Positions 1-17,300 of a DNA stretch of 29,748 bases are shown here, in pieces. This DNA comes from a virus (Duplodnaviria; Caudoviricetes), in IMG/VR virus record IMGVR_UViG_3300034894_000022, positions 1-29,748 of that record; one strand, written 5' to 3'. The notes below the pieces were generated by a model. That model was not told the DNA's origin. It saw only the letters and a list, made by a program, of their open reading frames with translations, and did no database searches. Position 1 is the stretch's first letter. The number at the start of each line of letters is the position of its first letter. The position numbers were made by a program, and so were the translations under genes.

Positions 1-1526
1 GGCAGGGTCCGCGCGACGTGTACGGCACCGGCCTCCGCGTACACGGCATCGATGTGCCCGGCGCCTTTGCGGTCGAAGATCCACAGGTCGCCGCGCGGTC
101 GCTGGATCGCGTTACCCACGTGCGTGGTCGCAAGCTCGTGGCCGTCGTGGCGCAGCTCGTCGGAGTCGAGCTGCTCGACAAACCCCATGCACACGGCGGG
201 CGTGCCGGTCGTGATCTCGACGAGCTTGACGCCGCGCGGGGGCCAACGCACGGTGGTGGCCGTGCCGCGCCGCGGTGCGGCCAGCTCGCCCATGACGCCG
301 GCGGCCGGACCGTTCGGGAACCACACGAGCACGCGCGGCCGGACGGCCGCCATGATGCCGGGTAGCTCGCGGCGCATCGCGGCCGTCGAGTCCCATGCCG
401 CGATGATGCCGGTGTGCACCTTGCCGTCGACCACGGCCGCGCCGGCGAGCGTGGCGTGCCGGCCGTCGAGCGACACGTCGAGACACGTGGCGAGGGCGCC
501 CCGGTGCTCGGCGAGGTTGAGTGCGGGGCGATCCTCGCGTGGTCCGCGCTCGATCCACGTGGTCATGTTGATCGCCGGGCGCAGTGCTTCCCGGGCGATG
601 CACATGTACTCGGTGTAGAACTCCTCGAGGGCTTCGCCGCCTTCCGCCTCGGCGGTCATCGCGTCGGCCAGGAGCGCCTCGGCGTCGATGCGGCCGCCGA
701 GGTCGGGGTTGGCCATGGCGAGAGCGGCGAGGTCGGTCGGCCGGGCGTCTTCGGGTGCTGACCACTCGATCAGCCCGAGCCGGCGGTCACCCTGGCCTGT
801 GGCGATGTAGCGCAGCGCCGCTTCGCGCAGCGACTTGAGCACGACGGCGTCGCTGTATCCCTGGTTGCTGGTGGCGATGAGCTGGGCGTACCGGTCGGCG
901 CGCATGGCGCCGACGACGGCGGCGAACGCTTCGCGGCTGTGGTGCTCGCGGAGCTCGTCGACGTGCGCGCGGTTGATCGACCGGCCGCGGCCCGCCCGGC
1001 GGTTGGGTGCCTTGAACACGTAGTGGGCGTCGTGGACGTTCCAGAAGTCTTCTTCGCCGGGCTGTAGGCGCTGGTGGTAGGTCGGCAGCTCGACCTTGAG
1101 GAGCTCGTGGCCCTCGGCGATGTTCACCACGGCTTGCCACGACTTCTTGGCTTCGCCCCGGTCAAGGTGCGTGGCGACCGTCAGGCCGATGCGCTGCACG
1201 AACATCCAGAACAGGATCAGCACCCGGGCGAAGACCGTCTTGCCGTTCTGCCTCGCGACGATGATCAGGAGCGTGCGGAAGCGCGGGCGGCCGTCGGGCA
1301 GCAGCTCGCCGACGTGGATCGCGAGGAATCGCTGCCACTCGTCGAACGGCCAGCCGATGACCTCGGCGAACCGAATCAACCGAAACCCGTAGCTGGTGGC
1401 GTTGGTCAATGCGCATCCGCACGGGCACTCGCCGGGCGGGCCGGTCACGAGCGGCGGTGTCCAGAGGCGGGGCAGGACGCTGCCCCGGATCGTGTCGACG
1501 TCGGGCTCAGCCTGTGTGGCGGGCAC
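1..1526 (-). CDS. terL: Terminase large subunit (3' end runs off the window)
   Basis: Absent from the ORF track because it has no stop inside the window. Hand translation from GTG 1526 gives MPATQAEP..GECPCGC..LIIVARQNGKT (Walker A)..RAHVDELRE (Walker B)..TSNQG..EWSAP..ANP..CLDVSLD..HIDAVYAEAGAVHVARTLP. The start overlaps the terS end. Confidence 0.93.
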   Translation of the reverse strand, partial: MPATQAEPDVDTIRGSVLPRLWTPPLVTGPPGECPCGCALTNATSYGFRLIRFAEVIGWPFDEWQRFLAIHVGELLPDGRPRFRTLLIIVARQNGKTVFARVLILFWMFVQRIGLTVATHLDRGEAKKSWQAVVNIAEGHELLKVELPTYHQRLQPGEEDFWNVHDAHYVFKAPNRRAGRGRSINRAHVDELREHHSREAFAAVVGAMRADRYAQLIATSNQGYSDAVVLKSLREAALRYIATGQGDRRLGLIEWSAPEDARPTDLAALAMANPDLGGRIDAEALLADAMTAEAEGGEALEEFYTEYMCIAREALRPAINMTTWIERGPREDRPALNLAEHRGALATCLDVSLDGRHATLAGAAVVDGKVHTGIIAAWDSTAAMRRELPGIMAAVRPRVLVWFPNGPAAGVMGELAAPRRGTATTVRWPPRGVKLVEITTGTPAVCMGFVEQLDSDELRHDGHELATTHVGNAIQRPRGDLWIFDRKGAGHIDAVYAEAGAVHVARTL

Positions 1527-1905
1527 GTCGGCTCGCTAGCTCGTCTTCTTCGGCGCGCAGTGCTGCGAGCGGGCTCGCCGGCGCGGTGTCGGTGACCGCC
1601 TGTCCGACCGCGGCCCGGGCCTTCGGCGTGAGCAGTAGCGCGTCGAGAGCGGCGAGCAGCTTCGGTCCGAGGTCGCTGGCGACGGTCACGGCCGAGACCG
1701 CCGCGCAGACCTTGTCGAGCGCGTCGCGTGCTTCGTCGCTGCCCGCCGCGTCCACGGTCGTCCTGACGACCTGGAGCGCCTTGGCGAGTCCGAGCGTCGT
1801 GTGCGTCGCCTCGTCGATCCGCTCGGCGTAGGTGAGCGCGAGGACGGCGGCCGGGGCGCTTTTGCCGTCGGCGACGGCGGTCGCAACGGCTTCGGTCAGT
1901 CGCAC
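1507..1905 (-). CDS. terS: Terminase small subunit
   Basis: GTG 1905 with GGAGG RBS (1913-1917). Helical protein with ALTYAERID..LGPKLLAALDALLLTPKARAA, typical of actinophage TerS, directly upstream of terL. Confidence 0.8.
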   Translation of the reverse strand: MRLTEAVATAVADGKSAPAAVLALTYAERIDEATHTTLGLAKALQVVRTTVDAAGSDEARDALDKVCAAVSAVTVASDLGPKLLAALDALLLTPKARAAVGQAVTDTAPASPLAALRAEEDELASRRARHTG

Positions 1906-1937
1906 GTGGGCACCTCCCTGTCGATGCGCTTGATGGG

Positions 1938-1966
1938 AACGATAATCGTTTTCATGTACGATGCGC
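1938..1966 (-). promoter_or_regulatory. Fur/Zur-like operator and promoter element, copy 1 (terS/portal divergent region)
   Basis: Minus strand reads GCGCATCGTACATGAAAACGATTATCGTT, with palindromic core AACGAT-A-ATCGTT (1938-1950). 23/29 identical to the element at 13908-13936. Confidence 0.65.
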
Positions 1967-2000: not shown

Positions 2001-2264
2001 GTGACGACGGCGACCGCGCCCGTACCGAGCCTCGCGGCGACGCGCGGCCGGGTTGCCGCTGCGGTCGCGCGCGTCGCCCGCGGCGTTGTCGCGCGGACCG
2101 TCACGGCCGCCCGCGCTGGCGGGGCCACGGCGATCGGCGCGGCCGGGCTCACTTCGATCGCCGTCGGCGCCGGGGCTCAGTGGGGTTGGCCCGTCGGGCT
2201 CATGGTTGGCGGCCCGCTCGCCGTCTGGTTCGCCTCGCTGCTGCCGGGCGGCGATCGGCAGTGA
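2001..2264 (+). CDS. Small membrane protein upstream of portal
   Basis: GAGGGAG RBS, GTG 2001, hydrophobic C-terminal half (IGAAGLTSIAVGAGAQWGWPVGLMVGGPLAVW). Stop overlaps the portal start (GTGA). Confidence 0.7.
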   Translation: MTTATAPVPSLAATRGRVAAAVARVARGVVARTVTAARAGGATAIGAAGLTSIAVGAGAQWGWPVGLMVGGPLAVWFASLLPGGDRQ

Positions 2265-3553
2265 GAAACGTCTTTGCTCCGCGCAAGCCGGCCGCCCCTG
2301 CCCCGCCCCGCAACGACACCATGTCGATCAGCGACCCGCGGTTCGCCCGGTGGCTCGGCATCGACTCGGCGGCCGGCGTGCCGGTCACCGACTACACGGC
2401 GCTCACCGTCTCGGCCGTCTACCGGGCCGCGATGCTCGTCGCGAGCTCGTCGGGCGGGCTGCCCCTGCGCACCATGCGCGAGTGGGGCACGACGCGTTCG
2501 GTGGTCGGTTCGTGGCTCGACGACCCCGCTTCGGCGGTCGGGTACAAGCCGTTCAACTGGAAGCAGACGAGCTTCCTGCACATGCTGCTCGGCGGCGACT
2601 CGTTCCAGCGCCACCTGTACAACGTGGCGGGCGCGCTCGCCGGCCTCGAGCCGATTAACCCCCGCCACGTGGCCGTCTACTGGGACGACACACGTCCGGG
2701 CGGCAAGCGCTTCGAGGTGTCGCTACTGCGCGACGGCAAGACGTGCAGGGAGACCTACGACCCGTCGACCATGACCCAGGTCATGGGCCCGACGCTCGAC
2801 GGGCTGCGCGGCCTGTCGGTCGTCGGGCTCGCGCGCACCTCGCTCGGCGGCGCAATCGCGGCCGACCAGGCGGCGGCCAACACCTTCCGCAATGGGCCGA
2901 TGATCGGCGGGCTCGCGGTGCCGACCGAGGACCTGGACGACGGCGACGCCGCCGCGGCGTCGGACATCATCAACGACGCGATCGGCGGCACCGAGAACGC
3001 GGGCCGGATCGTCGTGCTCGAGCGGAAGTTCGACCTCAAGCCTTGGACGATGACGCTCAAGGACGCGCAGTTCCTAGAGTCGCGGCAATTCTCGATCCAG
3101 GAAATCGCGCGCTGGTTCGGCGTCCACCCCGTGTTCTTGATGGACCCCGGGTCGGTCAGCACCTGGGGTACCGGCGTCGAAATCCTTCAACGCGGGCTCG
3201 GACGCTTCACGCTCCCGCAGTACACCGACCCGTTCCAAGAGGCCATGTCGGCCCTGCTGCCCAACAAGTCGTGGGCCGAGTTCGACTTCGCCGAGCTCGA
3301 ACGTGGCTCGCCGCAGGAGGAGATCGCGCTAATCATTCAGCAGGTCGAGGGCGGTCTCATGACGATCAATCAGGCGCTCAAAGCCGTCAACCGCCCCGGC
3401 ATCGGCCCGGCCGGTGACGTGCTGCGCCTGCACGGCGAGCCGCTCAACCCCGAGGTCGCCGAGCCTGTCAGTCCGACGTCGGCCATCCCGGCGACCAACG
3501 CGGTGCCAACGGCCGCGCAACTCCGTGCACTGATGGGGGCCACCAATGCGTAA
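2261..3553 (+). CDS. Portal protein (HK97 family)
   Basis: ALTVSAVYRAA..LPL..GLRGLS..DAQFLESRQFSIQEIARWFGVHP..GTGVE motifs; start taken at the GTGA overlap. Confidence 0.95.
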   Translation: MRNVFAPRKPAAPAPPRNDTMSISDPRFARWLGIDSAAGVPVTDYTALTVSAVYRAAMLVASSSGGLPLRTMREWGTTRSVVGSWLDDPASAVGYKPFNWKQTSFLHMLLGGDSFQRHLYNVAGALAGLEPINPRHVAVYWDDTRPGGKRFEVSLLRDGKTCRETYDPSTMTQVMGPTLDGLRGLSVVGLARTSLGGAIAADQAAANTFRNGPMIGGLAVPTEDLDDGDAAAASDIINDAIGGTENAGRIVVLERKFDLKPWTMTLKDAQFLESRQFSIQEIARWFGVHPVFLMDPGSVSTWGTGVEILQRGLGRFTLPQYTDPFQEAMSALLPNKSWAEFDFAELERGSPQEEIALIIQQVEGGLMTINQALKAVNRPGIGPAGDVLRLHGEPLNPEVAEPVSPTSAIPATNAVPTAAQLRALMGATNA

Positions 3554-4367
3554 CCCGGTCATCGTCGACCCCGTGCTCCGGGCGGCCGGCCAGCGCCGGC
3601 CCGGCATCAACCACGTCGGTGCTCGATGGCTGCTGCGCGCACCGGACGGCACCCGCGAACTTGGGCACCGCACTGAGCCCGGTGACTCGGGCTGGTACCG
3701 GATCCGCAACGAGGTGTCCGATCAGCGCGCCCGGGTCGACCTGTTCGACGAGATCGGTTGGGACGTTACGGCCGGCGAGTTCATCGCCGACCTGAACGCC
3801 ATCGACGCAGCCGGCATCGACCTGCACATCAACTCGCCCGGCGGCAGCGCATGGGACGGGTTCGCCATCTACAACGCGCTCATCGCGCATCCCGCGTCGG
3901 TGTCTGTCCATGTGATCGGCATCGCCGCGTCGGCCGCCTCGATCGTGGCCATGGCCGGCGACGAGGTCATCATGTACCGGCCGTCGCAGATGATGATCCA
4001 CCGCGCCGGGACGGGGGCGTGCGTGTTCGGCAACGCCGACGACATGCGGGCGGGGTCCGCCGAGGTGCTGACCATGGCCACCTCGCTCGACCAGATCGAC
4101 AACCAGATCGTGAACCTGTACGCGAACAAGGCGGGCACCGACCCGCAGGCCTGGCACGACGCGGTGTGGGCCGAAACCTGGTACGACCCCGACTCGGCGC
4201 TCGCGGCCGGGCTGGCCGACCGCATCAACGGCGACGACGGCCAGGCCGGCGCGCCCACGGATTCCCCCGCCCCGGGGACAGGGGCAACCGCCCGTGCGCA
4301 GGACGCGCCCGGCGCACACATCGTGCGGGCGCGTGCCCGACGGGTCCTCGAAGGAGGAGTCAAGTAA
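3546..4367 (+). CDS. ClpP-like (S14) prohead maturation protease
   Basis: LHINSPGG, GIAASAASIVAMAGD, MMIH, ETWY..ALAAGLAD motifs; lies between portal and capsid. Confidence 0.95.
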   Translation: MRNPVIVDPVLRAAGQRRPGINHVGARWLLRAPDGTRELGHRTEPGDSGWYRIRNEVSDQRARVDLFDEIGWDVTAGEFIADLNAIDAAGIDLHINSPGGSAWDGFAIYNALIAHPASVSVHVIGIAASAASIVAMAGDEVIMYRPSQMMIHRAGTGACVFGNADDMRAGSAEVLTMATSLDQIDNQIVNLYANKAGTDPQAWHDAVWAETWYDPDSALAAGLADRINGDDGQAGAPTDSPAPGTGATARAQDAPGAHIVRARARRVLEGGVK

Positions 4368-5653
4368 TGCGAACGATCGACGAGATCATGGCCGACATGC
4401 AGGCCATCATGTCCCAGGCCACGCTCACCCAGGAGGACGTCAACACGTACCTCACGCTGGAGGCCGAGCTGGCCGCCGCCCAGGCGGCGCAGAGCGCCGA
4501 CGACAGTGGTGACGGCGAGGGCGAGCTTGCCCCGGCCAACGCTCCGGACGAGGCGGCGCCGGCCGCGCCGGCCGCCACCGTCAACGCGCTGCGGACTCGG
4601 CACAACGCGTACACCCGCGTCGTGGTGCCGGCCGGCAGGCCGAGCAACCGGCAGCGGGAGGACGCCGAGGCCGACGGGTTCCGGGCGTACCTGCGCACCG
4701 GCCGCGTCAACTCGGACATGCAGCGCGGCCCGCAGAACGCGCAGACGACCGGCACCGGCAGCTCGGGCGGCTACCTCGTGCCCGAAGGCTTCCTCAACCG
4801 CATCGTCGAGGTCATCAAGAGCTTCGGTGGTGTGCTCAACGACGCCGAGCACCTGACCACGGACAGCGGCAACCCGCTGCCGTTCCCGACCAACGACGAC
4901 ACGTCGAACGAGGCCGTGGTCACGGCCGAGAGCACCACGCCCGCGTCGGGCGCGGACCTCGTGTTCGGCACCGTGCAGCTGTCCGCGTTCGAGTACACCG
5001 CGAGCGGTACCGGCGGCAACGCGCTCGCCGTGCCCCTCGCGCTGATCCAGGACGCGGCGTTCGACGTCGAGGCGTACGTCGCGAAGAAGCTCGGCCAGCG
5101 CCTCGCGCGCAAGATGGCCAAGGACGCCGTGACGGGTACCGGTACGGGCCAGGCGCAAGGCATCCTGCAGGGGATCACCGGTGCGGAGATCAGCTCGGCG
5201 TTGACGTACGACAACCTCGTGGACCTGATCATGTCGCTCGACGAGGTGTACTGGGCCAACGCCCGCTGGTACATGAACCGGGCGAGCTTCGGCACGATCC
5301 TCAAGCTGGAGGACGGCGCCGACCAGCTGATTTTCAAGCCGGCCGTGTCGCTGACTAGCGGCAACGCCACGCAGGCGGACGGCGCGATTCAGGTCGGCGC
5401 GGTGCTCGCGCCGGTCGTGCTCGACTCGGCGTTCTCCGACATCCTGCTGACCGCGGGCGCGGGTCAGAACTGGGGCATCTTCGGCGACATCTCCGAGGGC
5501 TACGTCTGGCGGCAGGTGCGTCAGATCGAGGTGCTCGTCGACCCGTACACGGCCGCCAACAAGCGTCAGATCCAGTACAACGCGTGGGCCCGGGCCGACG
5601 GCCGGCAGAAGAACACCAGCGCGTACAAGGTCATCGCGGGTTACACCGCCTAA
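4367..5653 (+). CDS. Major capsid protein (HK97 fold, N-terminal scaffold domain)
   Basis: AGGAGG RBS, TAATG overlap; GGYLVPE, ALIQDAAFDVEAYV, GTGTGQAQGI, FGD..Y, RADG motifs. Confidence 0.95.
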   Translation: MRTIDEIMADMQAIMSQATLTQEDVNTYLTLEAELAAAQAAQSADDSGDGEGELAPANAPDEAAPAAPAATVNALRTRHNAYTRVVVPAGRPSNRQREDAEADGFRAYLRTGRVNSDMQRGPQNAQTTGTGSSGGYLVPEGFLNRIVEVIKSFGGVLNDAEHLTTDSGNPLPFPTNDDTSNEAVVTAESTTPASGADLVFGTVQLSAFEYTASGTGGNALAVPLALIQDAAFDVEAYVAKKLGQRLARKMAKDAVTGTGTGQAQGILQGITGAEISSALTYDNLVDLIMSLDEVYWANARWYMNRASFGTILKLEDGADQLIFKPAVSLTSGNATQADGAIQVGAVLAPVVLDSAFSDILLTAGAGQNWGIFGDISEGYVWRQVRQIEVLVDPYTAANKRQIQYNAWARADGRQKNTSAYKVIAGYTA

Positions 5654-5669
5654 GTGACCCTCTCGCCGC

Positions 5670-5698
5670 GCGGGGCCGGGCTCGCGGCCCGGTCCCGC
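5670..5698 (+). terminator. GC-rich hairpin after the capsid gene (attenuator or mRNA stabiliser)
   Basis: GCGGGGCCGGGC..GCCCGGTCCCGC, 12-bp stem with one G-U pair, no U-tract. Confidence 0.5.
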
Positions 5699-5744
5699 CG
5701 GTCGGACTCAACCACAGAACCTGTCCACCCAGGAGGGACACGTA

Positions 5745-6176
5745 ATGCGTCAGTCATCGCTCGACGCGATCCGCTCGCTCGGCACGGCCAAGGGCTCGAT
5801 CGCCACCGTGACCACCACGGCATTTGACTTCGGAACGCCGAACGACATCGATCTCCGCTCGACCGGCTGGGCTCGCGGGTGTCGACTGCTCGTCATCCTG
5901 CACAACACCACGGCCGGCACCACCGACACGACGTCGTGGACCATCCAGGACGCGGCCGACAACGCCGGCTCGATCGGCACCCCGGCCACGGCGGACTACA
6001 CGGTGATCGCGGGTACGGCCGCGCTGGCCGGCGGTACCGGCGATGAGTTCGCAGTTGTCGCCGTCACGCCCAAGGCCGACCGGCCGTGGTTGCGGGTCAA
6101 CCTCGTCCGGGCCGCAGGCACCACAGACACCGTCGTGGGCACGGTCACCGTGCTCGCGCTGCCGGCGTCGATCTGA
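5745..6176 (+). CDS. Putative capsid decoration/accessory head protein
   Basis: AGGAGG RBS; Thr/Gly/Ala-rich beta-type 143-aa protein directly after the capsid gene. Confidence 0.6.
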   Translation: MRQSSLDAIRSLGTAKGSIATVTTTAFDFGTPNDIDLRSTGWARGCRLLVILHNTTAGTTDTTSWTIQDAADNAGSIGTPATADYTVIAGTAALAGGTGDEFAVVAVTPKADRPWLRVNLVRAAGTTDTVVGTVTVLALPASI

Positions 6177-6222
6177 CGACCCGTCCTGATCCACACCGAG
6201 AGCCGGAAGGAGGGCCGCGGAC

Positions 6223-6840
6223 ATGTGGGCACCGGATTATCTGGACCAGGAGGAAGCGGCCGACTTCCTTAACCTGGGGACACCCAGCGACGAGGAGGCG
6301 GCCGACCTCGCCGTGTTCATCCCTGCAGCCTCGCGCGCGATCGACCGCGCGTGCGGCCGGCAGTTCGGTGCCGTGGAAACCCCGCAGGAACGGTTCTACA
6401 CGCCCCGCTGGAGTCGGACCCGCGGCCGGTGGATGGTGCGCATCGACGACCTGATGTCCACGACCGGCCTCGTGGTGACGGTCCGGACCGAGGACGGGAC
6501 AGAACTCGGCGCGGCCACGTACACGCTGGAGCCGCGCAACGCGGCCGCGGACGGCGTGCCGTGGACCGACATGGCACTGCTGTCGTCCTCGGCGGTGCTG
6601 CCGGGCGGCGCCGGCGACGAGATGGGTATCACCGCCGAGTGGGGCTGGACGGCGTTCCCCGACGTCGTCACGGCCGCAGCCAAGCTGCAGCTGTCGCGCT
6701 TCTGGGCGCGTCGCCAGTCTCCGTTCGGTATCGCGGGCTCGCCCGACCAGGGCAACGAACTGCGCCTGTTGGAGCGGCTGGATCCCGACGTGGCGGTCAT
6801 GCTGCGGTCCGTGCGCCGCCTTGGGGTGGTGGCGCGCTGA
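6223..6840 (+). CDS. Head-tail adaptor
   Basis: Y..AASRAIDRACGRQF..R.Y..WGWTAFPDVVTAA..RRQSPFG..RLDPDV, typical of actinophage adaptors. Confidence 0.85.
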   Translation: MWAPDYLDQEEAADFLNLGTPSDEEAADLAVFIPAASRAIDRACGRQFGAVETPQERFYTPRWSRTRGRWMVRIDDLMSTTGLVVTVRTEDGTELGAATYTLEPRNAAADGVPWTDMALLSSSAVLPGGAGDEMGITAEWGWTAFPDVVTAAAKLQLSRFWARRQSPFGIAGSPDQGNELRLLERLDPDVAVMLRSVRRLGVVAR

Positions 6841-7244
6841 TGGACGTAGCAGCCGTCATGGCCGCCATCGCGACCGCCGTCACCGCAGGCACCGGGGTTC
6901 GGACGGCGGGCTATCCCGTCAGCACGACCACGGCGCCCAGCGCCTTCGTGGACTACCCGACCGACATCCAGTACGACCAGACGTACGGCCGGGGCTCGGA
7001 CGCGATGACGGTTCCGCTCGCGATGCTCATCGGCCGCAGGGACGACGAGCGCACGACGGCCGCGGTCAGCGCCTACGCAGCCGGCGGTGGCGCGAGCAGC
7101 GTGAAGGCGGCCGTCGAGTCCTACGAGACCGCCGCGTGGGACGTCGCGGTGGTCACCTCGGCCAACTTCGACTACGTGACGGTTGGGGCCGTCCCGTACG
7201 TCGCGGCCGTCTTCGAAATCGAGATCACAGGACAGGGAGCCTGA
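6840..7244 (+). CDS. Tail terminator-like protein
   Basis: TGATG overlap, 134 aa, APSAFVDYP..YDQTYGRG..YVAAVFEIEI; lies immediately before the tail tube gene. Confidence 0.7.
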   Translation: MDVAAVMAAIATAVTAGTGVRTAGYPVSTTTAPSAFVDYPTDIQYDQTYGRGSDAMTVPLAMLIGRRDDERTTAAVSAYAAGGGASSVKAAVESYETAAWDVAVVTSANFDYVTVGAVPYVAAVFEIEITGQGA

Positions 7245-7245
7245 C

Positions 7246-7659
7246 ATGACCCTCAAGCACGGCAAGGACACGGTGGTCAAGGTCAACTCTGTTGACCTGT
7301 CGCAGTACACCAACGAGTCGGAGATCTCCAAGACGACCGACACCCACGACACCACGCACTACGGTGATGACGCGCACGAGCACAGCCCCGGCCTCAACAA
7401 CGGCACGTTCACCATGGGCGGTACCTACGACACCACGGCCGCCACCGGGCCGCGCGCCGCGCTCAACATCGTGTACGCCGGCAACGCCGCCGTCCCGATC
7501 ATCCGTCAGCCGGAGGGCACCGGCTCCAGCAAGCCGCAGGACAGCTTCAACGCCATCCTGACGGGCTACACCGAGACCAACCCGGTGGCGGACATGGTCA
7601 AGTGGAAGGCCGACTTCCAGATCACCGGCGACGTCGACACCACCGCGCAGAGCGCCTGA
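7246..7659 (+). CDS. Major tail (tube) protein
   Basis: HGKDT..DLSQY..DTTHYGD..GL.NGTFTMGG.YD..PEGTGS..WKADFQITG motifs. Confidence 0.88.
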   Translation: MTLKHGKDTVVKVNSVDLSQYTNESEISKTTDTHDTTHYGDDAHEHSPGLNNGTFTMGGTYDTTAATGPRAALNIVYAGNAAVPIIRQPEGTGSSKPQDSFNAILTGYTETNPVADMVKWKADFQITGDVDTTAQSA

Positions 7660-7997
7660 TGAGCGAGATCGTTTCGCTTGACGTGCTCCTCGCGGCCAGC
7701 GTGCCCGAGGACGTCGCGGAGATCAAGGGCGTGGGCTTCGTGAAGGTACGGGGCCTGACGCGGGCGGAACTCCACCTGCTGACGAAGAAAGACGGCGGCC
7801 AGCCGAAGCAGGACACATCGGACCTTTTCTACTTCACGCATGGCTTGGTGGAGCCGAGGGTCACTGATGCTCAGGCACGCGCCATCTTCGAGTCGGTGGG
7901 GTTCGGTGCGATCCAGCCGGTGATCGCCAAGATCTCCGAGCTGTCCGGTGTCAGCAAGGACGACCAGAAGGCGGCCTACAAAAGCCTTCGAGACTGA
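7659..7997 (+). CDS. Tail assembly chaperone (G)
   Basis: VKVRGLTRAE..GLVEPRVT..ISELSG..AYKSLR; lies after the tail tube gene. Confidence 0.85.
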   Translation: MSEIVSLDVLLAASVPEDVAEIKGVGFVKVRGLTRAELHLLTKKDGGQPKQDTSDLFYFTHGLVEPRVTDAQARAIFESVGFGAIQPVIAKISELSGVSKDDQKAAYKSLRD

Positions 7998-8154
7998 CGG
8001 CTCCCTCGACTTTGAGTTCTACCTCGCGGACCGATTGAAGCTGACCGTCGCGAGGCTCCGGCAGGAAATGAGCGCAGACGAGTTCATGCGCTGGGGCGTC
8101 TGGCACGGCCGGCGCGCGCAGGTGCAACAGCTGGCCACGAGGAAGGGCGGGTGA
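7981..8154 (+). CDS. Tail assembly chaperone frameshift extension (GT)
   Basis: Overlapping +1-frame ORF without a good start or RBS: FEFYLADRLKLTVARLRQEMSADEFMRW, typical of TAC C-terminal extensions. Confidence 0.7.
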   Translation, partial: KAFETDGSLDFEFYLADRLKLTVARLRQEMSADEFMRWGVWHGRRAQVQQLATRKGG

Positions 8155-8155
8155 C

Positions 8156-8566
8156 ATGGCTCTGACGATCGCGGTGTCCGGGCTGCGGGAGTTGTCGCGC
8201 TCCCTCAACAAGGTGGACGGCGAATCGGCCAAGCAGCTGCGGGTGGTCTTCAACGAGGCGGCCGAGCTGGTGATCACAACGGCCCGCCCGAGGATCCCGC
8301 GCCGCACTGGCCGCGCGGCCGGCTCGCTCAAGACCAAGAGCACGCGCACCGCGGTACGTGTTGCGTTCGGCGGGCCGAAGGCTCCCTGGTACCCGTGGCT
8401 CGACTTCGGCGGGCGCACTGGCCGGAAGAAGAGCGTGGTCCGTCCCTTCCTGACGGACGGCCGGTACGTGTACCCGGCGTACTACGAACGCCGCGACGAC
8501 ATCATGCGGGCGATGCAGGAAGGCATCGAGCGCGTGGCCCGCGACGCGGGGTTGGAGGTGAGCTAA
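8156..8566 (+). CDS. HK97 gp10-like tail completion/neck protein
   Basis: IAVSGLRELSRSL..PRRTGRAAGS..PWYPWLDFGG..YVYPA motifs. Confidence 0.85.
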   Translation: MALTIAVSGLRELSRSLNKVDGESAKQLRVVFNEAAELVITTARPRIPRRTGRAAGSLKTKSTRTAVRVAFGGPKAPWYPWLDFGGRTGRKKSVVRPFLTDGRYVYPAYYERRDDIMRAMQEGIERVARDAGLEVS

Positions 8567-8997
8567 TGCGACTCGACGTAGGCGATGAGCGCGCGCAGGC
8601 GGTCCACGCTGTCACCGACCATGCCCAGCGCGACGTTGCACTGCTGGCACAGCAGGCCGCGCACGCATTGCCCACAGATCCTGGTCTGCTGGCGCGTGCC
8701 GGGGCAGCAACTGTGGTCGTGGTCGATGACGAGGGCCTTGCGGTCAAAGCCGTACTCGCCGCTACCCGCGCCACCGCAAGCCGCGCACCGACCACCTTGC
8801 GCCTCGTACATCGCCCGGTAGTCGGTGAGCCTGATCCGGTAGAACGTCCACAGCTTCGCGTCCATCCAACTGTCGGGGCTGTCGTTGCGGCGCGCCTTGG
8901 CGCGCGCGTTGGCGCAGGGCAGGCATGTCCAGCCGCTGCGCTTTCCGTCGCGCATCCGTTGCTTCATGGGCGATTCGCACTTGGGGCACGTCTTCAC
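8563..8997 (-). CDS. Endonuclease VII family (HNH-like) nuclease, antisense insertion
   Basis: CPKC..CLPC N-terminus; YRIRLTDYRAMYEAQGGRCAAC..LVIDHDHSCC..CGQCVRGLLCQQCNVALG. GTG 8997 lies 6 nt after a TACCAT -10-like hexamer. Confidence 0.9.
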   Translation of the reverse strand: MKTCPKCESPMKQRMRDGKRSGWTCLPCANARAKARRNDSPDSWMDAKLWTFYRIRLTDYRAMYEAQGGRCAACGGAGSGEYGFDRKALVIDHDHSCCPGTRQQTRICGQCVRGLLCQQCNVALGMVGDSVDRLRALIAYVESH

Positions 8998-9009
8998 GGC
9001 CTCATGGTA

Positions 9010-9034
9010 CCGAATTCCTGTGACAAGAATTCGG
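9010..9034. promoter_or_regulatory. 25-bp palindrome upstream of the endonuclease VII gene
   Basis: CCGAATTCCTGTGACAAGAATTCGG, 11 of 12 positions pair. Confidence 0.55.
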
Positions 9035-9044
9035 CGGTGAGCTG

Positions 9045-10340
9045 ATGGCCGGCAACCAGGTGACGTTGACGTTCGGCGGCGACGCCGAGGCGCTCGTGAA
9101 GGCGGCGGCCAAGTCCAAGAAGGCGCTCGACGACGTCGGGGCCGCGGTGGTCGACGCCGGCGACAACATGGACGGCGCCTCGAAAGAGTCGACGGACCTC
9201 GGCACGCGCCTGGGGCACCTTGGCTCGACGGTGGACGCGGCCTCCGGCGCGGTGGACGACATGTCCGGAGCGCTCCAGGCCGTCGCGGACATCTCGTCCG
9301 CAGCCGAACGCCGCGCCCAGGAGCACGCACGCGCCATCAACGACCTGAAGCAGGCCCAGCAGGATCTGAATCAGGCGCTGCTGGATGGCAAGCAGGCGAC
9401 CCTGGATGTGGACCAGGCGAACATTGACGCACAGCAGGCACAGCTGGACGCGAAGACGGCCCAGGAGGACTACAACACGGCCGTCAAGGAGCACGGCAAG
9501 AACAGCAACGAAGCGCGCCAGGCGTCCATCGACCTGAAGCAGGCGCAAGCGGACCTGAAGCAGGCGAACGCGGACGTGGAGCAGGCCACCAGCGACTCCA
9601 CGCAGGCCACCATCGACGCAGAGGCTGCGCAACTCGATGCCAACGAGGCGTACAAGGCAGCACACCCACCGGACCTCCAGAAGTTCCTTGACCAGATCAA
9701 CCAGTACGCGCCGCTCGTCAACGGCCTGGTGGCCATCATCGGCGTCGTCACCGCCGTGCAGTGGGCGTGGAACGCCGCGCAGCTCGCCAACCCGATCGGG
9801 CTGATCATCGCCGCCGTCGTGGCATTGATCGCGATCATTGTCGTGATCGCCACCAAGACCGATTGGTTCCAGCGGGCGTGGCGCGCGTCGTGGGGATGGA
9901 TCAAGAGCGCCGCCGCGTCGGTGTGGGATTGGCTGAGCAAGCTCCCGGAGCGGATCGGCGCCGTCTTCTCGAAGGTCAAGAACTTCATCACCGCGCCGTT
10001 CCGCGCCGCCTTCAACTTCGTGGCCGACGCCTGGAACAACACCGTGGGCGCGCTGCGCTGGACGGTGCCGAACTGGGTGCCCGGCATCGGCGGCAACACC
10101 GTGGGCGCCCCGCAGCTGCCCCACTTCCACAACGGCGGCGTGGTGCCGGGCTCCCCCGGGCAGGAGGTGCTGGCGGTGCTCCAGGCAGGCGAGACGGTTA
10201 CGCCGGCCGGCGCGGGCGGCGGTAGTTCAACACTGGTGATCAAGTCTGGAGGGTCCGCGCTTGACGACGCGATTGTGGAGATCATCGCTCGCGCTGTTCG
10301 CCGTGGTGGTCCTGGCGTTATCAACGTTCGGACGGCCTGA
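9045..10340 (+). CDS. Tape measure protein (short, 431 aa)
   Basis: MAGNQVTLTFGGDA start, Ala/Gln coiled-coil repeats (DLKQAQ.D), ANPIGLIIAAVVALI hydrophobic segment, Trp-spaced repeats, FHNGGVVPG..GETV C-terminus. Confidence 0.92.
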   Translation: MAGNQVTLTFGGDAEALVKAAAKSKKALDDVGAAVVDAGDNMDGASKESTDLGTRLGHLGSTVDAASGAVDDMSGALQAVADISSAAERRAQEHARAINDLKQAQQDLNQALLDGKQATLDVDQANIDAQQAQLDAKTAQEDYNTAVKEHGKNSNEARQASIDLKQAQADLKQANADVEQATSDSTQATIDAEAAQLDANEAYKAAHPPDLQKFLDQINQYAPLVNGLVAIIGVVTAVQWAWNAAQLANPIGLIIAAVVALIAIIVVIATKTDWFQRAWRASWGWIKSAAASVWDWLSKLPERIGAVFSKVKNFITAPFRAAFNFVADAWNNTVGALRWTVPNWVPGIGGNTVGAPQLPHFHNGGVVPGSPGQEVLAVLQAGETVTPAGAGGGSSTLVIKSGGSALDDAIVEIIARAVRRGGPGVINVRTA

Positions 10341-10341
10341 C

Positions 10342-13113
10342 ATGCCGAAGACGAACGTGGGCGTCTCGCTGTACTACTCCGGGAAGTGGAACAGCGCCCC
10401 GGCGTACACCCGGGACCCCATCACCTCCGTGTGGGGGCTGAAGGACGAAGGTGGCGGCATCACCCCTTCGTCGTGCACGGCCACGCTGGACAACCGGGAC
10501 GGCACCTATATCCCGGACGATGCGCGCTCCTCGCTGTACGGGCTGATCGGCCGCAACACCCCGGCGCGCGTGGCCATCCCTCCCGCGCTGACGTCCGGCG
10601 CCTGGTCCGACACGGCGGACGCCTTCGGGCGGACCTCCGTGGACTCCTGGGGGTCCGCTGACTCCGGCGAGGCGTGGAGCACGTTCTCTGTGGGCGGGAC
10701 CATCCTGGCATCTGACTTCCAGGTCAACTCCGGCGTGGGCAAGTTGTCTGTGCCAGCGGCGAACACACTGCGCGCGACCTACCTGGGAGACATCGCTGTA
10801 ACCGATGTCTCCATCGCGGTGACCACCTCCGCGCCGCAGGCCACGGGTGCGTCCCTGGAGATCGCTACCGTTCTGTTCCGTGGCACCACCACGTCCAGTT
10901 ACCAGTCCGTACGGGTGATCGCCAACACAGACAACAGCGTCCAGGTCCGTGCTGTCACCACGAACGGGACGTCCCTGGCGCTGGAGACGGTGGCCGGCCT
11001 CACGCACGCCGGCACCGGTACGCCGCTCCGGGTGCGGGTAATGGCGCTGGGCACGCGCGTCCTGGCGCGGGTGTGGGTAGCGGCGAACGCGGAGCCGACC
11101 ACGTGGGACCTGGACATGGAGGACCCGGACGACACACCGGTGCCGGGCTGGATCGGCGTCCGTGCCGCGCGCTCCAGCGGCAACAGCAACACCTCCCCCG
11201 TGGTGTTCCAGATGGACAACTGGGAGAGCACCAGCTACGCCCCGGTCTGTCAGGGTGGCGTGATCTCCTGGAAGCCCGACCGGGCACTGAAGACGGACGC
11301 CTGGACCAGCATCGAGATTGCCGGGCCGGCGCAGCGCGTGAACGCGGACCTGGGCGTCCGTTCGGCGCTGACCCGCTCGCTGTCCGCACCGAACGTTGCC
11401 GGCGCACCAGACGCCTGGTGGCCGATGGAGGGCCAGGACCTGGCGGCGCACGTGCCTGGGACGGGCGCGGTGAATACCTCCGTGGCCGCACTGGAGCCGG
11501 GCGCGTTCCACTCCGCGTATTTCCCCGATGAGCCGGTGGGACCCATCACCCAGTACACCGGCCCGGAGCTGGAGGGGACGTCCTCCCTCATCGACCTGGC
11601 GGCCGGTGCGAGCCTGAAGGCCACTCCGCCGTACGACCCCACGGCTACGGCGTACGTCATCGAATGGTCCGTGCAGGGCAAGGCCGCTGGCGACGATCCC
11701 ACGCTGGGTTTCCAGATGCTCCGGCTGGACTTCGACAACGGCTCCACCATCACGGGCGTGGGCGCCTCCACGGCTATCGAGATCGGTAACGCGGCGGGGG
11801 ATGACGCCTACCTTCGGATTGAGTCGCTGCTGGGTGGGACCGGGCTGGGGCACTCCGGGGTGCCGGTCTACAACGACCGCGTGCGGGACTACCGCGTCCT
11901 GATCAAACAAGACGGCGCGGACGTGGTGGCGTTCCTGTCGATTGACGGGGAGATCATGACCTCGGTGGTGCGCACCGGGGAAACCATGGGGTCGCTGCGC
12001 TACGTCTGGATGAACTACCCGTCCGGCAAGGGAGACAGCGTCCCCCGGTACGGCCAACTCCGGGTGTGGAACAGCGAGACCCCCACCTCCTTCTCCTCCG
12101 CTGGCATCGGCTACCGGGGGGAAACGGCAGCGGCACGCTTCGGGCGGGTGTGCGAGGAAATCGGCATCGTTCCCAGCGTCATCGGAAGCGACACCGACCC
12201 CATGGGACCGCAGTACCCCGGGACGCTGGGCAACATCCTGGAGGAGGTGGCGCGCACAGACGGCGGCATGATCTACGACGCGCGCTGGTGGTACGGGCTG
12301 GAGTTCCGGACCCTCCGGAGCATGTACAACCAGACGCCGGCCCTGGAGCTGACCTACGGCACGGACGTCGCGCCGCCACTCGCGCCCGTCTCTGACGACC
12401 TGGGCCTGACGAACTCCGTCACGGCCAACCGGACCAACGGCATCACGGTGGTGGCTCAGAAGACGTCCGGACCGCTGAACATCAATGACCCATTCACCGA
12501 CCCAGACGGCGTGGGCCTGGTGCCCACCACCCTGGACGCCAACCCGGAGACCGACGCGGACATGTACGACGTGGCCGGTTGGGCGCTGGCGCTGGGTACG
12601 TGGAAGGGGACGCGGTATCGCAACATCACCGTGGACCTCACGGCGCGGCCCGCCCACTTCCTGGCCGCCATGAGCATCCGCCCGGGGGACCTCATCACCG
12701 TGGCGAGCCTGGAGGCGGACCTGGTGGAGCTGATCGTGGTGGGCGGGGTGAACGTCGTCGGCAACAACAGCCACCGCGCCACATTCAACTGCCGGCCAGC
12801 CGGCCCGTTCCGTGTCCCCGCAGTGGGCGCCAGTGACGTGCGCGTCGGCTCCGCCACCTCCACCCTGGCCGCAGACTTCGACGCCGGCACGGACACCTCC
12901 ATGAGCGTGGCCGTCACCGGCGCGCTGTGGTCCACCACGGCGGAGCCGTGGCACATCACCGTCGGCGGGGTGGTGCTGAACGTCACCGCCGTTACCGGCG
13001 CCACCTCGCCGCAGACCTTCACCGTGGACGCCACGCCGGTCAACGGCGTCGAACGCACCATCGTGGCCGGCGCGCGTGTCGGCATCTACCCGCCGTATTT
13101 CGTCGGTCTGTAG
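10342..13113 (+). CDS. Large tail tip/baseplate protein (923 aa)
   Basis: Follows the TMP; PSSCTATLDNRDG.Y.P..SSLYGLIGRNTP N-terminus, FGRTSVDSWG beta domain, LamG-like AWWPMEG, GETAAARF..MGPQ..DGG hub region. Confidence 0.85.
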   Translation: MPKTNVGVSLYYSGKWNSAPAYTRDPITSVWGLKDEGGGITPSSCTATLDNRDGTYIPDDARSSLYGLIGRNTPARVAIPPALTSGAWSDTADAFGRTSVDSWGSADSGEAWSTFSVGGTILASDFQVNSGVGKLSVPAANTLRATYLGDIAVTDVSIAVTTSAPQATGASLEIATVLFRGTTTSSYQSVRVIANTDNSVQVRAVTTNGTSLALETVAGLTHAGTGTPLRVRVMALGTRVLARVWVAANAEPTTWDLDMEDPDDTPVPGWIGVRAARSSGNSNTSPVVFQMDNWESTSYAPVCQGGVISWKPDRALKTDAWTSIEIAGPAQRVNADLGVRSALTRSLSAPNVAGAPDAWWPMEGQDLAAHVPGTGAVNTSVAALEPGAFHSAYFPDEPVGPITQYTGPELEGTSSLIDLAAGASLKATPPYDPTATAYVIEWSVQGKAAGDDPTLGFQMLRLDFDNGSTITGVGASTAIEIGNAAGDDAYLRIESLLGGTGLGHSGVPVYNDRVRDYRVLIKQDGADVVAFLSIDGEIMTSVVRTGETMGSLRYVWMNYPSGKGDSVPRYGQLRVWNSETPTSFSSAGIGYRGETAAARFGRVCEEIGIVPSVIGSDTDPMGPQYPGTLGNILEEVARTDGGMIYDARWWYGLEFRTLRSMYNQTPALELTYGTDVAPPLAPVSDDLGLTNSVTANRTNGITVVAQKTSGPLNINDPFTDPDGVGLVPTTLDANPETDADMYDVAGWALALGTWKGTRYRNITVDLTARPAHFLAAMSIRPGDLITVASLEADLVELIVVGGVNVVGNNSHRATFNCRPAGPFRVPAVGASDVRVGSATSTLAADFDAGTDTSMSVAVTGALWSTTAEPWHITVGGVVLNVTAVTGATSPQTFTVDATPVNGVERTIVAGARVGIYPPYFVGL

Positions 13114-13122
13114 GAGGACCCC

Positions 13123-13869
13123 GTGGGCACGTACGTGGCCGGTCCGGAGCTGACCGCCGATTACCTCAATGAGCCAGCAGACGCGTTCTGGGCGGGCTAT
13201 GCGCAGGCGCTGAAGTACACAGCCAACAGCAGTTTCGCGAAGGCCAGCTACCCGGGCCTTCGCGGCGTGATCGTGGAGTGCCAGGGCCAGGGTGGGGGCG
13301 GGGGTGGCACCGGAGCCACGGCGGCCGGAACGGTCGGAGCGGCCAGTGGAGGGGGCGGTGGGGGCTTCGTCCGCGCCTGGATCCCAGCGTCCACGCTGGG
13401 CACGTCTGAGACGATCACCATCGGCACGTCCGGCGGCGCCGGCGGTACCGGTACCGGCACTGGTACCGCCGGCGCTAGTACCACGTTCGGTTCCCTCGTG
13501 ACGGCTGGCGGGGGAGGAGTTGGTGAGTCCGTGGCCGCGTCCTCCGCCACCGTCCGTTCGCAGGGCGGGGACGGTGGCACGGGGTCAGTCAGCGGCACTG
13601 GCGTGGTGGAGCTGTTCTACCGCCCCGGCATGACCGGCGGGTCCGGCTACTCCAAGGGCACGACGGCCACGGAGGCCGGCGTGGGCGGGGACAGCTTCAA
13701 CGGCTCCGGCGGCCGGGTGTCCGCCGCGAACTCCGGGGGCAACGGCATCGCGCCCACCACGGGCGCGTACGGCGCTGGTGGCTCCGGCGCCTGGGCGGAC
13801 GTCTCGCAGTCGGCGTTCAACGGCGGTGCCGGCCTGGCCGGCGTCTGTCGCGTGATCCCTGTGTACTAG
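13123..13869 (+). CDS. Glycine-rich minor tail/fibre protein
   Basis: AGGAGG RBS; VECQGQGGGGGG..SGGGGGGF..GAGGSG..GGAGLAGVCRV glycine-rich phage tail domain. Confidence 0.85.
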   Translation: MGTYVAGPELTADYLNEPADAFWAGYAQALKYTANSSFAKASYPGLRGVIVECQGQGGGGGGTGATAAGTVGAASGGGGGGFVRAWIPASTLGTSETITIGTSGGAGGTGTGTGTAGASTTFGSLVTAGGGGVGESVAASSATVRSQGGDGGTGSVSGTGVVELFYRPGMTGGSGYSKGTTATEAGVGGDSFNGSGGRVSAANSGGNGIAPTTGAYGAGGSGAWADVSQSAFNGGAGLAGVCRVIPVY

Positions 13870-13907: not shown

Positions 13908-13940
13908 GCGCTCAGTAGATGAAAATGATTATCATTATCA
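13908..13940 (+). promoter_or_regulatory. Fur/Zur-like operator and promoter element, copy 2 (upstream of endolysin)
   Basis: TGAAAATGATTATCATTATCA (13920-13940). The reverse complement of 13921-13939, GATAATGATAATCATTTTC, matches the classical 19-bp Fur box at 18/19. Lies 31 nt before the start codon. Confidence 0.75.
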
Positions 13941-13971
13941 CGCCCGGCACAGTTGATCGGGAAGGAGCGTC

Positions 13972-14904
13972 GTGGCCACCAGTCCGGAGTACCCGGATCT
14001 CCCCTGGATCCCCCCGAAGTCATGGACTAAGGGCCGACCATCCGGTCAGCCCACACTCATCGTCATTCACACCACCGAGGGCAGCGAGGGCCTGGTGAGT
14101 GCGGAGAACGGCGCGAGCTACGACACGCGCCGGACCGATGGCGTCTCCACGCACTACTTCCATGATCAGGACACCACCATCCAGTGTGTCCGCACCACGG
14201 ACAGCGCACACACGGCCCGCGCCACCGGCAATGACCGCGGTATCCATCACGAGTTGTGCGGCCGGGCGGCGCAGAGTCCGGAGCAGTGGCGCGACGCGGC
14301 CAGCAAGGGCACCATCGCGCGCGCGGCGAAGCAGGCGGCGCGGGACGCGAAGAAGTACGGCATCCCCGTGCGCCGGCTCACCGCGGCTCAGGTGCGCGCC
14401 GGGGAGAAGGGCTTTTGCGAGCACAAAACGATCTCCGATGCATTCGGGGAGACAGACCACCAGGACCCCGGGAAGAACTACCCGTGGACCTCGTTCCTGG
14501 CGATGGTTCAGGAGGAGATGGAGGACGGCGTGAGCCAGGCCGATGTGATCGCGGCGCTGAAGTCGAAGGAAGGCCGCGAGGCGCTGTGCGCCGCCGCGTG
14601 GAACACGGACGGCGTGGTGGCCGCGCCGGAGGAGGCGGCGGAGGGTAACGACTTCTGGGCGCCCGGGTCGTACATGAAGGACGTCCAGGCGCGCGCGCGG
14701 CGCACAGAGAACGCCCTGGCGGCCACGTCACAGGCGCTCCTGGCCGCCATCCAGGCCGTGGGCGCCAACTTCCACGTAGATGAGCAGGCCCTGGGCAAGT
14801 CCCTGGCGGCCGGCGTGGTGGCGTTGCTCCCCGTGGACACGGACGACGTCACCGTGGAGGAGCTGACCCTGGCCATCCGCAACCTGGTTGCCCCGGTCGT
14901 CTAA
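13972..14904 (+). CDS. Endolysin, N-acetylmuramoyl-L-alanine amidase (Amidase_2)
   Basis: GAAGGAG RBS; IVIHTTEG, STHY, SAHTA..GN..GIHHELCG, EHKTIS..DHQDPG..YPW zinc-amidase motifs; helical C-terminal domain. Confidence 0.93.
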   Translation: MATSPEYPDLPWIPPKSWTKGRPSGQPTLIVIHTTEGSEGLVSAENGASYDTRRTDGVSTHYFHDQDTTIQCVRTTDSAHTARATGNDRGIHHELCGRAAQSPEQWRDAASKGTIARAAKQAARDAKKYGIPVRRLTAAQVRAGEKGFCEHKTISDAFGETDHQDPGKNYPWTSFLAMVQEEMEDGVSQADVIAALKSKEGREALCAAAWNTDGVVAAPEEAAEGNDFWAPGSYMKDVQARARRTENALAATSQALLAAIQAVGANFHVDEQALGKSLAAGVVALLPVDTDDVTVEELTLAIRNLVAPVV

Positions 14905-14909
14905 GCACC

Positions 14910-15209
14910 ATGACCGAGCTCAACGGCCACAGCTACGTCACCCGCGCGGAGATCGGCCATCGGTTCGACGACATCCTGACCGAGCTTCGGTTGTTGCGTC
15001 AGGAAGTGGTGCGCCGCGACGTCTACGACGCGGAGCGCCGGGGGGACGCCGCCACGATGGCGGGGCTGCGGACCGATGTTGACGCGCTCGAACGGCGACT
15101 CGTAGCTAGCGAGGAAAGCAAGGCGTCCGCGCGCCGGCAGGCCGCCTTCGCCGTCTTCGCCGCGCTGCTCGCGCTCGCCGTCAACCTGCTCATCCAATTC
15201 ATTCACTGA
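14910..15209 (+). CDS. Lysis-cassette membrane protein (coiled coil plus C-terminal TM)
   Basis: Coiled-coil N-terminus, AAFAVFAALLALAVNLLIQF TM segment; adjacent to the endolysin. Confidence 0.7.
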   Translation: MTELNGHSYVTRAEIGHRFDDILTELRLLRQEVVRRDVYDAERRGDAATMAGLRTDVDALERRLVASEESKASARRQAAFAVFAALLALAVNLLIQFIH

Positions 15210-15219
15210 GGAGGGCACC

Positions 15220-15543
15220 ATGCCTGACCGCATCGCGGGCTACGTCCGCACCATCTGGCCGCTCGTGCTCGGTCACCTCGCCGCGTTCCTGGCGGCGTGG
15301 GTCGGCGCGCGGGTCGGCATCACCGTTGACGCGACGTGGGTGTACGAGCTGCTCGCGGTCGCGCTCGTCACCGTCATCTACGCCGGCGGCCGCTGGCTTG
15401 AGGTGCGCCCTGGCACGTCGACGCCCGCCCGCGTGGCGCGGGCCGTCGGGCACTGGGTGCTCTCGCTCGGCCTGCCGACCGGCCCGCCGTCGTACCCGCT
15501 CACCACGGGCCCGCCGCCCGCCTCTCCGGTCGTCCCTCGTTAG
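15220..15543 (+). CDS. Putative holin
   Basis: GAGGAGG RBS; YVRTIWPLVLG..IYAGGRWLE..WVLSLG..PSY with 2-3 TM segments, resembling actinophage holins. Confidence 0.7.
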   Translation: MPDRIAGYVRTIWPLVLGHLAAFLAAWVGARVGITVDATWVYELLAVALVTVIYAGGRWLEVRPGTSTPARVARAVGHWVLSLGLPTGPPSYPLTTGPPPASPVVPR

Positions 15544-16393: not shown

Positions 16394-16999
16394 TTACTGC
16401 GCCGGCCAGCCGAGGCCGGGCGCCGGGCTGACCGGGGCATCGCCCGCGGCCGCGAGCATCCGGGCCGCCTCGGCCGTGTCGGCCGGCGCCTTCGGGGTGC
16501 GGCTCGCGCGAGCGGCGGCGCGTCGGGCCTTCTCGGCGTCGGCGCGGTTGCGGCGCTTCGTCTCGGCGCCGCGGCGGGCGGCGTCGGACCGGATGGGGTC
16601 GACCACCTTGACCACCGGCTCGACCACCGGGGCGGGCGCCGGCTTGGCCTTGAGCTTCGAGACGAAGAACTCGGCGAGCAGGTACGCGGCCACGGTCCAC
16701 ACACCGACGAGGCGCTGCACGACGTTCTCGCCGACCGCGACGTTGGCGGCCACGGACGCCGAGCCGGCCAGCAGCAGCGTCCACAGCGCGGCGCGGCGGG
16801 CGCCGGCGTCGGCGACGTCGCTGTTGCGCACCATCGCGGCGAGGAAGGCGAGCAGGTCGACGGTGGCGGGGACGGCCCACGCGTAGAGCGTGCCGAGGCT
16901 GGCGGCGGCGAGCAGCTCGTGCTGGTGGCCGTAGGACTGGGCGCCGGCGACCAGCGCGATGAGGTAGGCGCCGATGCGGGCGATGAGCAGGATGTTCAT
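16394..16999 (-). CDS. DUF2637-like (SpdA-like) membrane protein
   Basis: AGAQSYGHQHEL..YAWAVPATVDLL..SASVAANV, four TM segments and a basic tail; GGAG RBS. Confidence 0.75.
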   Translation of the reverse strand: MNILLIARIGAYLIALVAGAQSYGHQHELLAAASLGTLYAWAVPATVDLLAFLAAMVRNSDVADAGARRAALWTLLLAGSASVAANVAVGENVVQRLVGVWTVAAYLLAEFFVSKLKAKPAPAPVVEPVVKVVDPIRSDAARRGAETKRRNRADAEKARRAAARASRTPKAPADTAEAARMLAAAGDAPVSPAPGLGWPAQ

Positions 17000-17092
17000 G
17001 GGGGACTCCAGTTCTTGGGGGCCGGGGGCGCGCCCTGGTGGCGCCGCTCCGTCCGGCTCGGTGTCGTACGGTGGTGCGAGGGGCCGGGAGTG

Positions 17093-17194: not shown

Positions 17195-17236
17195 TTCTGT
17201 CTCCCTTGTTCGTTTCCCCTTGCCCTGTGCATTAAG

Positions 17237-17291: not shown

Positions 17292-17300
17292 TTTTTCGGC

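Follow-up and report, generated by a model that had tools for sequence, protein, structure and literature searches.

Metal-dependent repressors are known to control cargo genes of prophages through their boxes, as in the DtxR-tox and Fur-stx1 pairs, and in actinomycetes the iron sensor is DtxR/IdeR. The zinc-dependent repressor Zur acts in actinobacteria on zinc-homeostasis genes, and in the available part of the S. coelicolor study its operators at znuA, rpmF and rpmG/B share a 15-bp 7-1-7 motif, tGaNNatSatNNtCa, obtained by ChIP (PMC5472717). In CtrA lytic deferment, as outlined in the accessible sections of PMC9437464, a host transcription factor is proposed to act at phage promoter sites and to time lysis to the state of the host. 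The Ltr and RinA activators of Gram-positive siphophages, in the portion of PMC3753634 at hand, work through a control element 5' of terS that governs packaging and lysis. In the excerpt of PMC9455884 that deals with the Zur regulon of VSP-II in V. cholerae, a host metal repressor controls genes of a mobile element.

The window analysed here, which is the whole stretch of 29,748 nucleotides, is an entire virus record (29.7 kb, 70% GC). Its gene order comprises terL and terS on the minus strand, the head-tail operon, an Amidase_2 endolysin, a tyrosine integrase, cI/cro-type HTH genes and early genes, and the contig stops short of the end of the early region (Table 1). The integrase and the cI/cro-type HTH genes, both recognised with Pfam, show a life style that is temperate as far as gene content tells. 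Since no host genome is attached to the record, the host group is taken from the terL relatives: the nearest genome-borne terL is that of Rhizocola hellebori (66%) and most others sit in Micromonosporaceae and Pseudonocardiaceae, so the host is probably an actinomycete of the Micromonosporaceae. Candidate host-group genomes were reached through loci. The synteny of the head-tail operon is kept in relatives. In the endolysin, residues H33, H151 and D165, which we take to be zinc ligands, are invariant among 8 homologs, and the two small ORFs that follow this gene matched no Pfam family above the cut-off and no PHROG. As originally predicted, the window contains no Fur-family gene, with zero Fur-family domains among its 39 ORFs in the Pfam search.

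Several other features of the window were recorded. An Endonuclease VII gene at 8563-9030, on the minus strand, lies within the tail operon, is absent from the L347 and L317 alignments and looks like an inserted homing endonuclease. The tyrosine integrase (20106-21608) bears a long Cys/His-rich insertion, and a UTRA-domain ORF at 18160-18489 stands alone, with no HTH recognised by Pfam. An AT-rich inverted repeat at 17231-17296 (GTACCACAGAAA ... TTTCTGTGGTAC), with a leftward ORF on one side and the gene of an Arc-like repressor (17301-17513) on the other, is likely the repressor gene's own operator. The palindrome AAAGTA-N5-TACTTT at 22243-22259, between the cI-like and cro-like genes, is a candidate immunity operator; it is unlike the Zur-type boxes, and for this difference the reading of the boxes as repressor "stoperators" was rejected.

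Table 1. Coordinates of the genes, boxes and predicted promoter elements of the window
Feature	Position	Strand	Remarks
terL	3..1499	-	phrog_9, E 1.8e-49; final codons beyond contig end
terS	1507..1905	-	PF23931, E 2.2e-7
Site 2, weaker Zur-type operator	1937..1957	.	Core 1940-1954; second register 1934-1948, 6 bp away
Predicted -10 TATCGT, terS-terL promoter	1939..1944	-	TATCAT at the equivalent place in L001; predicted start near 1931
Predicted -10 TACGAT, portal-capsid-tail promoter	1957..1962	+	Identical in L001; predicted start near 1969
Head-tail operon	2001..13869	+	Rightward promoter; small membrane ORF, portal, Clp-type protease, capsid, tail tube, tape measure, tail proteins (Pfam matches for portal, Clp and capsid; tail-tube match weak; remaining names from position)
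GCGC in -35 region instead of TTGACA, candidate activator contact	13908..13911	+	GCG invariant in four aligned sites
Site 1, Zur-type operator	13917..13937	.	21-mer; 7-1-7 core TGAAAATGATTATCA at 13920-13934
Second, weaker 7-1-7 register, possible second dimer	13926..13940	.	12.5 bits; 7.4 in T13938C haplotype (runs X2, X4)
Predicted -10 TATCAT, lysis promoter	13930..13935	+	Predicted start near 13942
Endolysin ribosome-binding site	13960..13967	+	GGAAGGAG; read from sequence
Endolysin, Amidase_2 domain	13972..14904	+	PF01510, E 1.3e-14
Two small ORFs with hydrophobic stretches 3' of endolysin, holin candidates	14910..15543	+	Role suggested by position

The gap before the endolysin contains TGAAAATGATTATCATTATCA at 13920-13940; at 17/21, no other 21-mer in the window exceeds it in AT content. 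The original prediction described this place as a nearly perfect Fur box with two overlapping 7-1-7 repeats, and both features hold: the minus strand of site 1 matches GATAATGATAATCATTATC at 18/19 positions, with 0/60 dinucleotide shuffles as good, and the registers at 13920-13934 and 13926-13940 lie 6 bp apart. A motif built de novo and unseeded from 35 actinomycete znuA upstream regions, with which the S. coelicolor ChIP motif agrees in the form given in the available text of PMC5472717, scores site 1 at 34.1 bits, a value that exceeds 12 of the 34 leave-one-out host scores (range 13.3-42.2). Site 1 also has all 11 specified positions of that ChIP motif, as the same text reports it (PMC5472717). 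The predicted -10 belongs to a TATCrTT sequence that is invariant across four aligned sites, and a G13942A variant retains a purine at the predicted +1. A sigma-70 scan of the gaps of sites 1 and 2 returned no -35/-10 pair, promoter or terminator, and RNA structure is unsupported at both places. A terminator hairpin 5' of site 1 was considered and is also unsupported (z +0.57), and the holders listed for the lysin region included no RNA holder.

The second copy lies at 1938-1954 on the minus strand, and 0/100 shuffles reached 4 matches. The identity of 23/29 between the two copies and their start-codon distances of 32 and 35 nt, both reported in the original prediction, stand on direct reading. 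Site 2 scores 13.7 and 15.1 bits in its two registers, exceeding 1 of the 34 host znuA sites at the bottom of the host range; it agrees with the E. coli Fur box at 14/19 positions and has 9/11 specified positions of tGaNNatSatNNtCa, as this motif is printed in the part of PMC5472717 consulted. This copy was said to precede terS, which is correct for its position upstream of that gene but is not the whole arrangement, as the gap of ~95 nt is divergent and separates terS-terL (minus) from portal-capsid-tail (plus). Because of this divergence, site 2 could act in both directions. The symmetric T>C / A>G difference between the two copies, which had been offered as a sign of a dimer site, is weak evidence because the two closest assembled relatives, L001 and L347, break the left arm of the palindrome in their orthologous sites.

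The divergence of terS-terL and portal is a family trait, found in 42 loci (duplicates included) and in 51 non-redundant gaps. A TAnnnT hexamer lies 5-8 nt 5' of the in-frame portal start in 48/51 of these gaps and 5-8 nt 5' of the terS start in 34/51 (perhaps 33, the terS match of L001 being probably spurious), at a chance of 0.36% per start. From this hexamer pattern the gap can be read as a pair of back-to-back, mostly leaderless promoters of putative sigma-A type. At site 2 the box runs over the predicted terS -10 and borders directly on the -10 that faces portal, and a regulatory position is likely for both boxes in that family anatomy and conservation would place each of them over a predicted -10 hexamer. 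The inverted order of terS-terL relative to portal is seen in the window (1-2261) and in 51 relatives (e.g. L002, L126, L159 and L483), and many of the terS/portal gaps are inverted repeats that link both -10 elements. L245 had seemed to match the L001 gap, but its sequence there is coding, and the match was discarded.

Boxes of this type are found in actinomycete genomes mainly at zinc genes. The unseeded search recovered the palindrome TATTGACAATSATTGTCAATA in 34/35 host znuA upstream regions, and the box TGAnAAyNrTTnTCA is present with 0-2 mismatches at 6/6 of the znuA-type loci inspected, which come from five genomes of the candidate host group. The pattern TGAAAAYVRTTATCRTT, which represents the shared 17-mer and was widened after the prophage locus L172 had been seen, gave 43 matches in 40/401 actinomycete genomes and 0 with the reversed control. 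All 43 were annotated, and 37 precede Zur-regulon genes: Azt/ZnuA in 12 cases, choice-of-anchor-M genes of anchored-repeat ABC clusters in 20 and L28/L33/L32 in 5, where the L32 assignment is our own reading of the ORF. The anchor-M clusters are presumably Zur targets, which fits the ZnuA-domain neighbour seen. The other matches precede four chelate-transport/metallophore-like genes of unassigned metal, one glyoxalase and one prophage portal gene. The exact 17-mer of site 2 makes up 14 of the 43 matches, and 14/14 precede Zur-regulon genes. At 8/43 host matches TTGACn stands 16 nt 5' of TATCGT, a spacing that supports reading TATCGT as a putative -10 element. In a second sample of 301 fresh genomes there were 21 matches, of which 7 are clear Zur-regulon cases; the others belong to biosynthetic or transport genes or have no assignment, and 0/21 adjoin a phage late gene like those of the window. 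Host peptides of 35-37 aa with HNSASHSNA, encoded immediately 3' of a Zur-type box (L645 1568-1672, L652 1357-1467), are candidate zinc-regulated peptide precursors.

The E. coli-type Fur box does not mark iron-uptake genes in these hosts, where zinc genes dominate the matches and at most 4/43 are chelate-transport/metallophore-like. Since Zur-regulon genes dominate the host matches, zinc and not iron is the supported candidate for the metal read by this box type, and the preference of the original prediction for Zur over iron-Fur is well supported at the sequence level, with site 1 inside the score range of host znuA.

Judged by these comparisons, the two boxes are near-exact copies of a host Zur-type operator placed over predicted late -10 elements, and site 1 would very probably be bound by Zur in vitro. 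In the proposed mechanism, zinc-loaded host Zur would occupy the lysis -10 and block RNA polymerase, so that site 1 would control the lysis cassette, and it would bind the bidirectional packaging/structure promoter more weakly at site 2, which would span both the terS -10 and the spacer of the promoter that faces the portal operon. Zinc shortage would lift the block on lysis, packaging and head-tail transcription, and a phage activator may still be required because the -35 hexamer is absent. We infer that binding would repress rather than activate and that release would depend on zinc; the whole proposal, with repression of both late promoters by zinc-loaded host Zur and their release on zinc shortage, has, in our estimate, about an even chance of being correct. 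Release of a presumed zinc amidase by zinc shortage is not an obvious fit and counts against the Zur reading.

Within the window only two places score above 4 bits, and both are predicted late promoters. Given its -10, the score of site 1 has a probability of ~1e-6 (50% GC), and given GAA-N6-TATCATT one of 3e-5; the corresponding values for site 2 are 7e-4 given its -10 and 8e-3 given the wider core, where scanning of many windows erodes any single value and the two sites are maybe non-independent. Across 308 related phage loci (4.05 Mb, redundant and partly host DNA) the score nowhere exceeds 22.0 bits, against 34.1 for site 1. A scan of viral contigs for the exact 17-mer is uninformative: it gave 119 loci, and those listed all had a GC content of 57% or less. 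The scan for TGATTATCATT with a ribosome-binding site gave 56 loci, of which the L347 contig alone exceeds 55% GC, and short blastn against cultured phages returned chance-level matches, nearly all in phages of unrelated hosts. Neither the single-protein scan of viral contigs with the lysin nor the capsid-alignment scan of genome contigs gave any match.

The box recurs once, in L172, a prophage of Micromonosporaceae whose portal differs from that of the window; there TGAAAACCGTTATCGTT at 3924-3951 scores 22.0 bits and lies over a -10 six bases 5' of the portal start; the boxed gene is a portal-protease-capsid fusion, and this case is in-sample, as the pattern was widened after it had been noticed. 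Matches in L283 (21.8 bits) and in L158 appear inside coding regions and were set aside. It is conceivable, if doubtful, that on more than one occasion temperate actinophages have turned late promoters into operators for host Zur, and that packaging, assembly and lysis would thus be licensed when the host is starved of zinc, with no phage-encoded sensor.

Conservation of the motif in related phages, which the original prediction had named beforehand as the test able to refute it, mostly failed. A tape-measure tree of 22 rows, chosen for near-full-length matches, groups the window with L347 and L001 (100/100), and the motif is absent from the orthologous sites of both. The lysin leader of L347, CGAACGTGATTATCATT, is orthologous to site 1 and scores -7.9 bits, the terS gap of L001, TGAACGGATCTATCATT, is orthologous to site 2 and scores -12.9 bits, and the two retain only GAA-N6-TATCrTT. 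None of the 51 non-redundant terS/portal gaps scores like site 1, and L244 alone is above 0, weakly, at 9.3 bits. All 31 distinct lysin leaders reach at most 3 bits on the six-site matrix and none resembles site 1, where the windows are imprecise if the match starts late in the protein and the conclusion is independent of the two leaders from genome G137. We rejected a host promoter as the captured source of the lysin leader, because L347 shares the leader without the box.

Closer variants come from soil runs. Across the leader the X3 contig shows no difference, yet 46/438 positions differ overall. The contigs of X4 and X2 have no change listed in 13917-13937 and differ in the DNA upstream, X2 being less certain because differences near alignment ends go unlisted. 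X4 and X2 share G13942A and also T13938C, the latter weakening the second register. This conservation spans the whole leader and therefore does not single out the operator. The box is kept only in close soil-run haplotypes and is not a family trait; parsimony suggests that a single narrow lineage gained it recently, at both promoters, upon an older core GAA-N6-TATCrTT. Among other family members, L334, L338, L340 and L343 are of 16-19 kb and have direct terminal repeats, a full head-tail set and a short tape measure, with no lysin matching the window's profile. L336 carries, at 16529-18480 and 3' of its lysin, at least five copies of the AT-rich repeat CTTACCAAG(A/T)(A/T)CTTAGTAAG.

The pattern of conservation bears on the main alternative, rather unlikely in our estimate, according to which the motif is a late-promoter element of the phage, formed by a -10 and the site of a phage late activator in a role like that of Ltr or RinA, and resembles a Zur box so that Zur binding is incidental. 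In its favour, the -35 hexamer is absent and GCG is invariant in that region. The sequence GAAAA is common to the two sites of the window and GAACG to L001 and L347, which looks like lineage-specific covariation, but L001 and L347 are different phages (72% identical) and each is available at one site only. One gain followed by copying between promoters would need a single lucky draw (~3e-5 to 1e-4). No late-activator family was recognised among the 30 proteins scanned, but the contig is cut off before the early region is complete, and in Firmicutes phages the Ltr genes are found at the end of that region according to the part of PMC3753634 seen. Against this alternative stand the zinc genes behind every host match to the exact site-2 17-mer and the abundance of Zur, which in S. 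coelicolor is put at ~3.7 uM in the available sections of PMC5472717. Zur at this level should occupy a 34-bit site on a -10, and therefore the match is unlikely to be neutral.

Zur could also be a fixed lock that silences lysin and terminase in the lysogen and is removed by phage replication, through titration of the operator, or by a phage activator, and not by zinc shortage. The integrase and cI/cro-type genes of a temperate phage suit this possibility, as do the leader that the lysin of the window has for itself, where several homologous lysins directly follow the upstream gene, and the response of Zur at sub-femtomolar zinc with its level constant, as described in the portion of PMC5472717 available. 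At the ~3.7 uM Zur given in the same source (PMC5472717), however, the pool is large for titration by two sites per phage genome, and the relatives do without such a lock, so that we regard this version as clearly unlikely.

It is highly improbable that another Fur-family protein, such as iron-Fur, FurA, Nur or a PerR-like paralog, reads the site. Each of the five candidate host-group genomes (five/five) encodes four Fur-family proteins, site 1 has its 18/19 match to the E. coli Fur box, and a few host matches precede chelate-transport/biosynthetic genes of unassigned metal, but 37/43 host matches are at Zur-regulon genes, and in the annotated host loci the gene that follows the box was never identified as fur or as a catalase or superoxide dismutase gene. 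Hardly credible is the remaining explanation, a packaging (cos/pac) or TerS-binding site at site 2 with site 1 as its copy or a chance AT-rich patch: site 2 is directly 5' of terS, where cos is often located, but the gap has the anatomy of back-to-back promoters, chance is excluded by the shuffles and score probabilities, and 12/45 relatives with complete terL end less than 200 nt past the terL 3' end in a shared A-run terminus, which points to a genome end on the other side of terL. These 12 relatives end 45-159 nt past terL, most of them in a terminus like AAAAAAACAG (L004, L005, L162, L197, L496, L497, L507, L517 and others), which is probably a physical genome end.

If control of the late promoters by zinc-loaded Zur is true, the timing of packaging and lysis in these prophages would follow the availability of zinc in soil and be independent of DNA damage, and the boxes open the little-studied question of the timing of actinophage late genes. 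If the Zur reading is false, a side result remains, namely a widespread actinophage family with a compact, bidirectional and mostly leaderless terminase/portal promoter. Control of phage genes by host factors is already known; what would be new is a zinc-sensor site on core late genes, as the open literature, judged by titles and abstract openings, yielded no report of Zur or a zinc sensor on such genes.

The host Zur loci are among the closest known systems. Those fetched here are composites of the operator and a TATCrT hexamer, as in the phage sites, while the phage promoters are without the TTGACn that 8/43 host loci have. The S. coelicolor operators have the same 7-1-7 motif as the phage boxes and, in the text available, lie at zinc-homeostasis genes, whereas here lysis and morphogenesis genes of a phage would be controlled, with binding predicted from sequence (PMC5472717). 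In concept, CtrA lytic deferment and the Ltr activators come closest. CtrA lytic deferment, as far as the accessible sections of PMC9437464 describe it, is similar in the use of a host transcription factor and in its independent origin in several lineages, but it responds to a cell-cycle signal through a dense cluster of sites, and the present case would involve a metal and two sites on the late promoters of a temperate actinophage. The Ltr proteins are phage-encoded activators that act on DNA repeats in the part of PMC3753634 consulted, whereas the element described here is a palindrome that matches the site of a host repressor; unlike in the Ltr/RinA systems of the same source, a further copy of this element stands before the lysin, and terS-terL and the portal operon are transcribed divergently (PMC3753634). 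In VSP-II of V. cholerae, according to the excerpt of PMC9455884, the genes under the host metal repressor are cargo genes, and in this phage the targets would be the core late genes.
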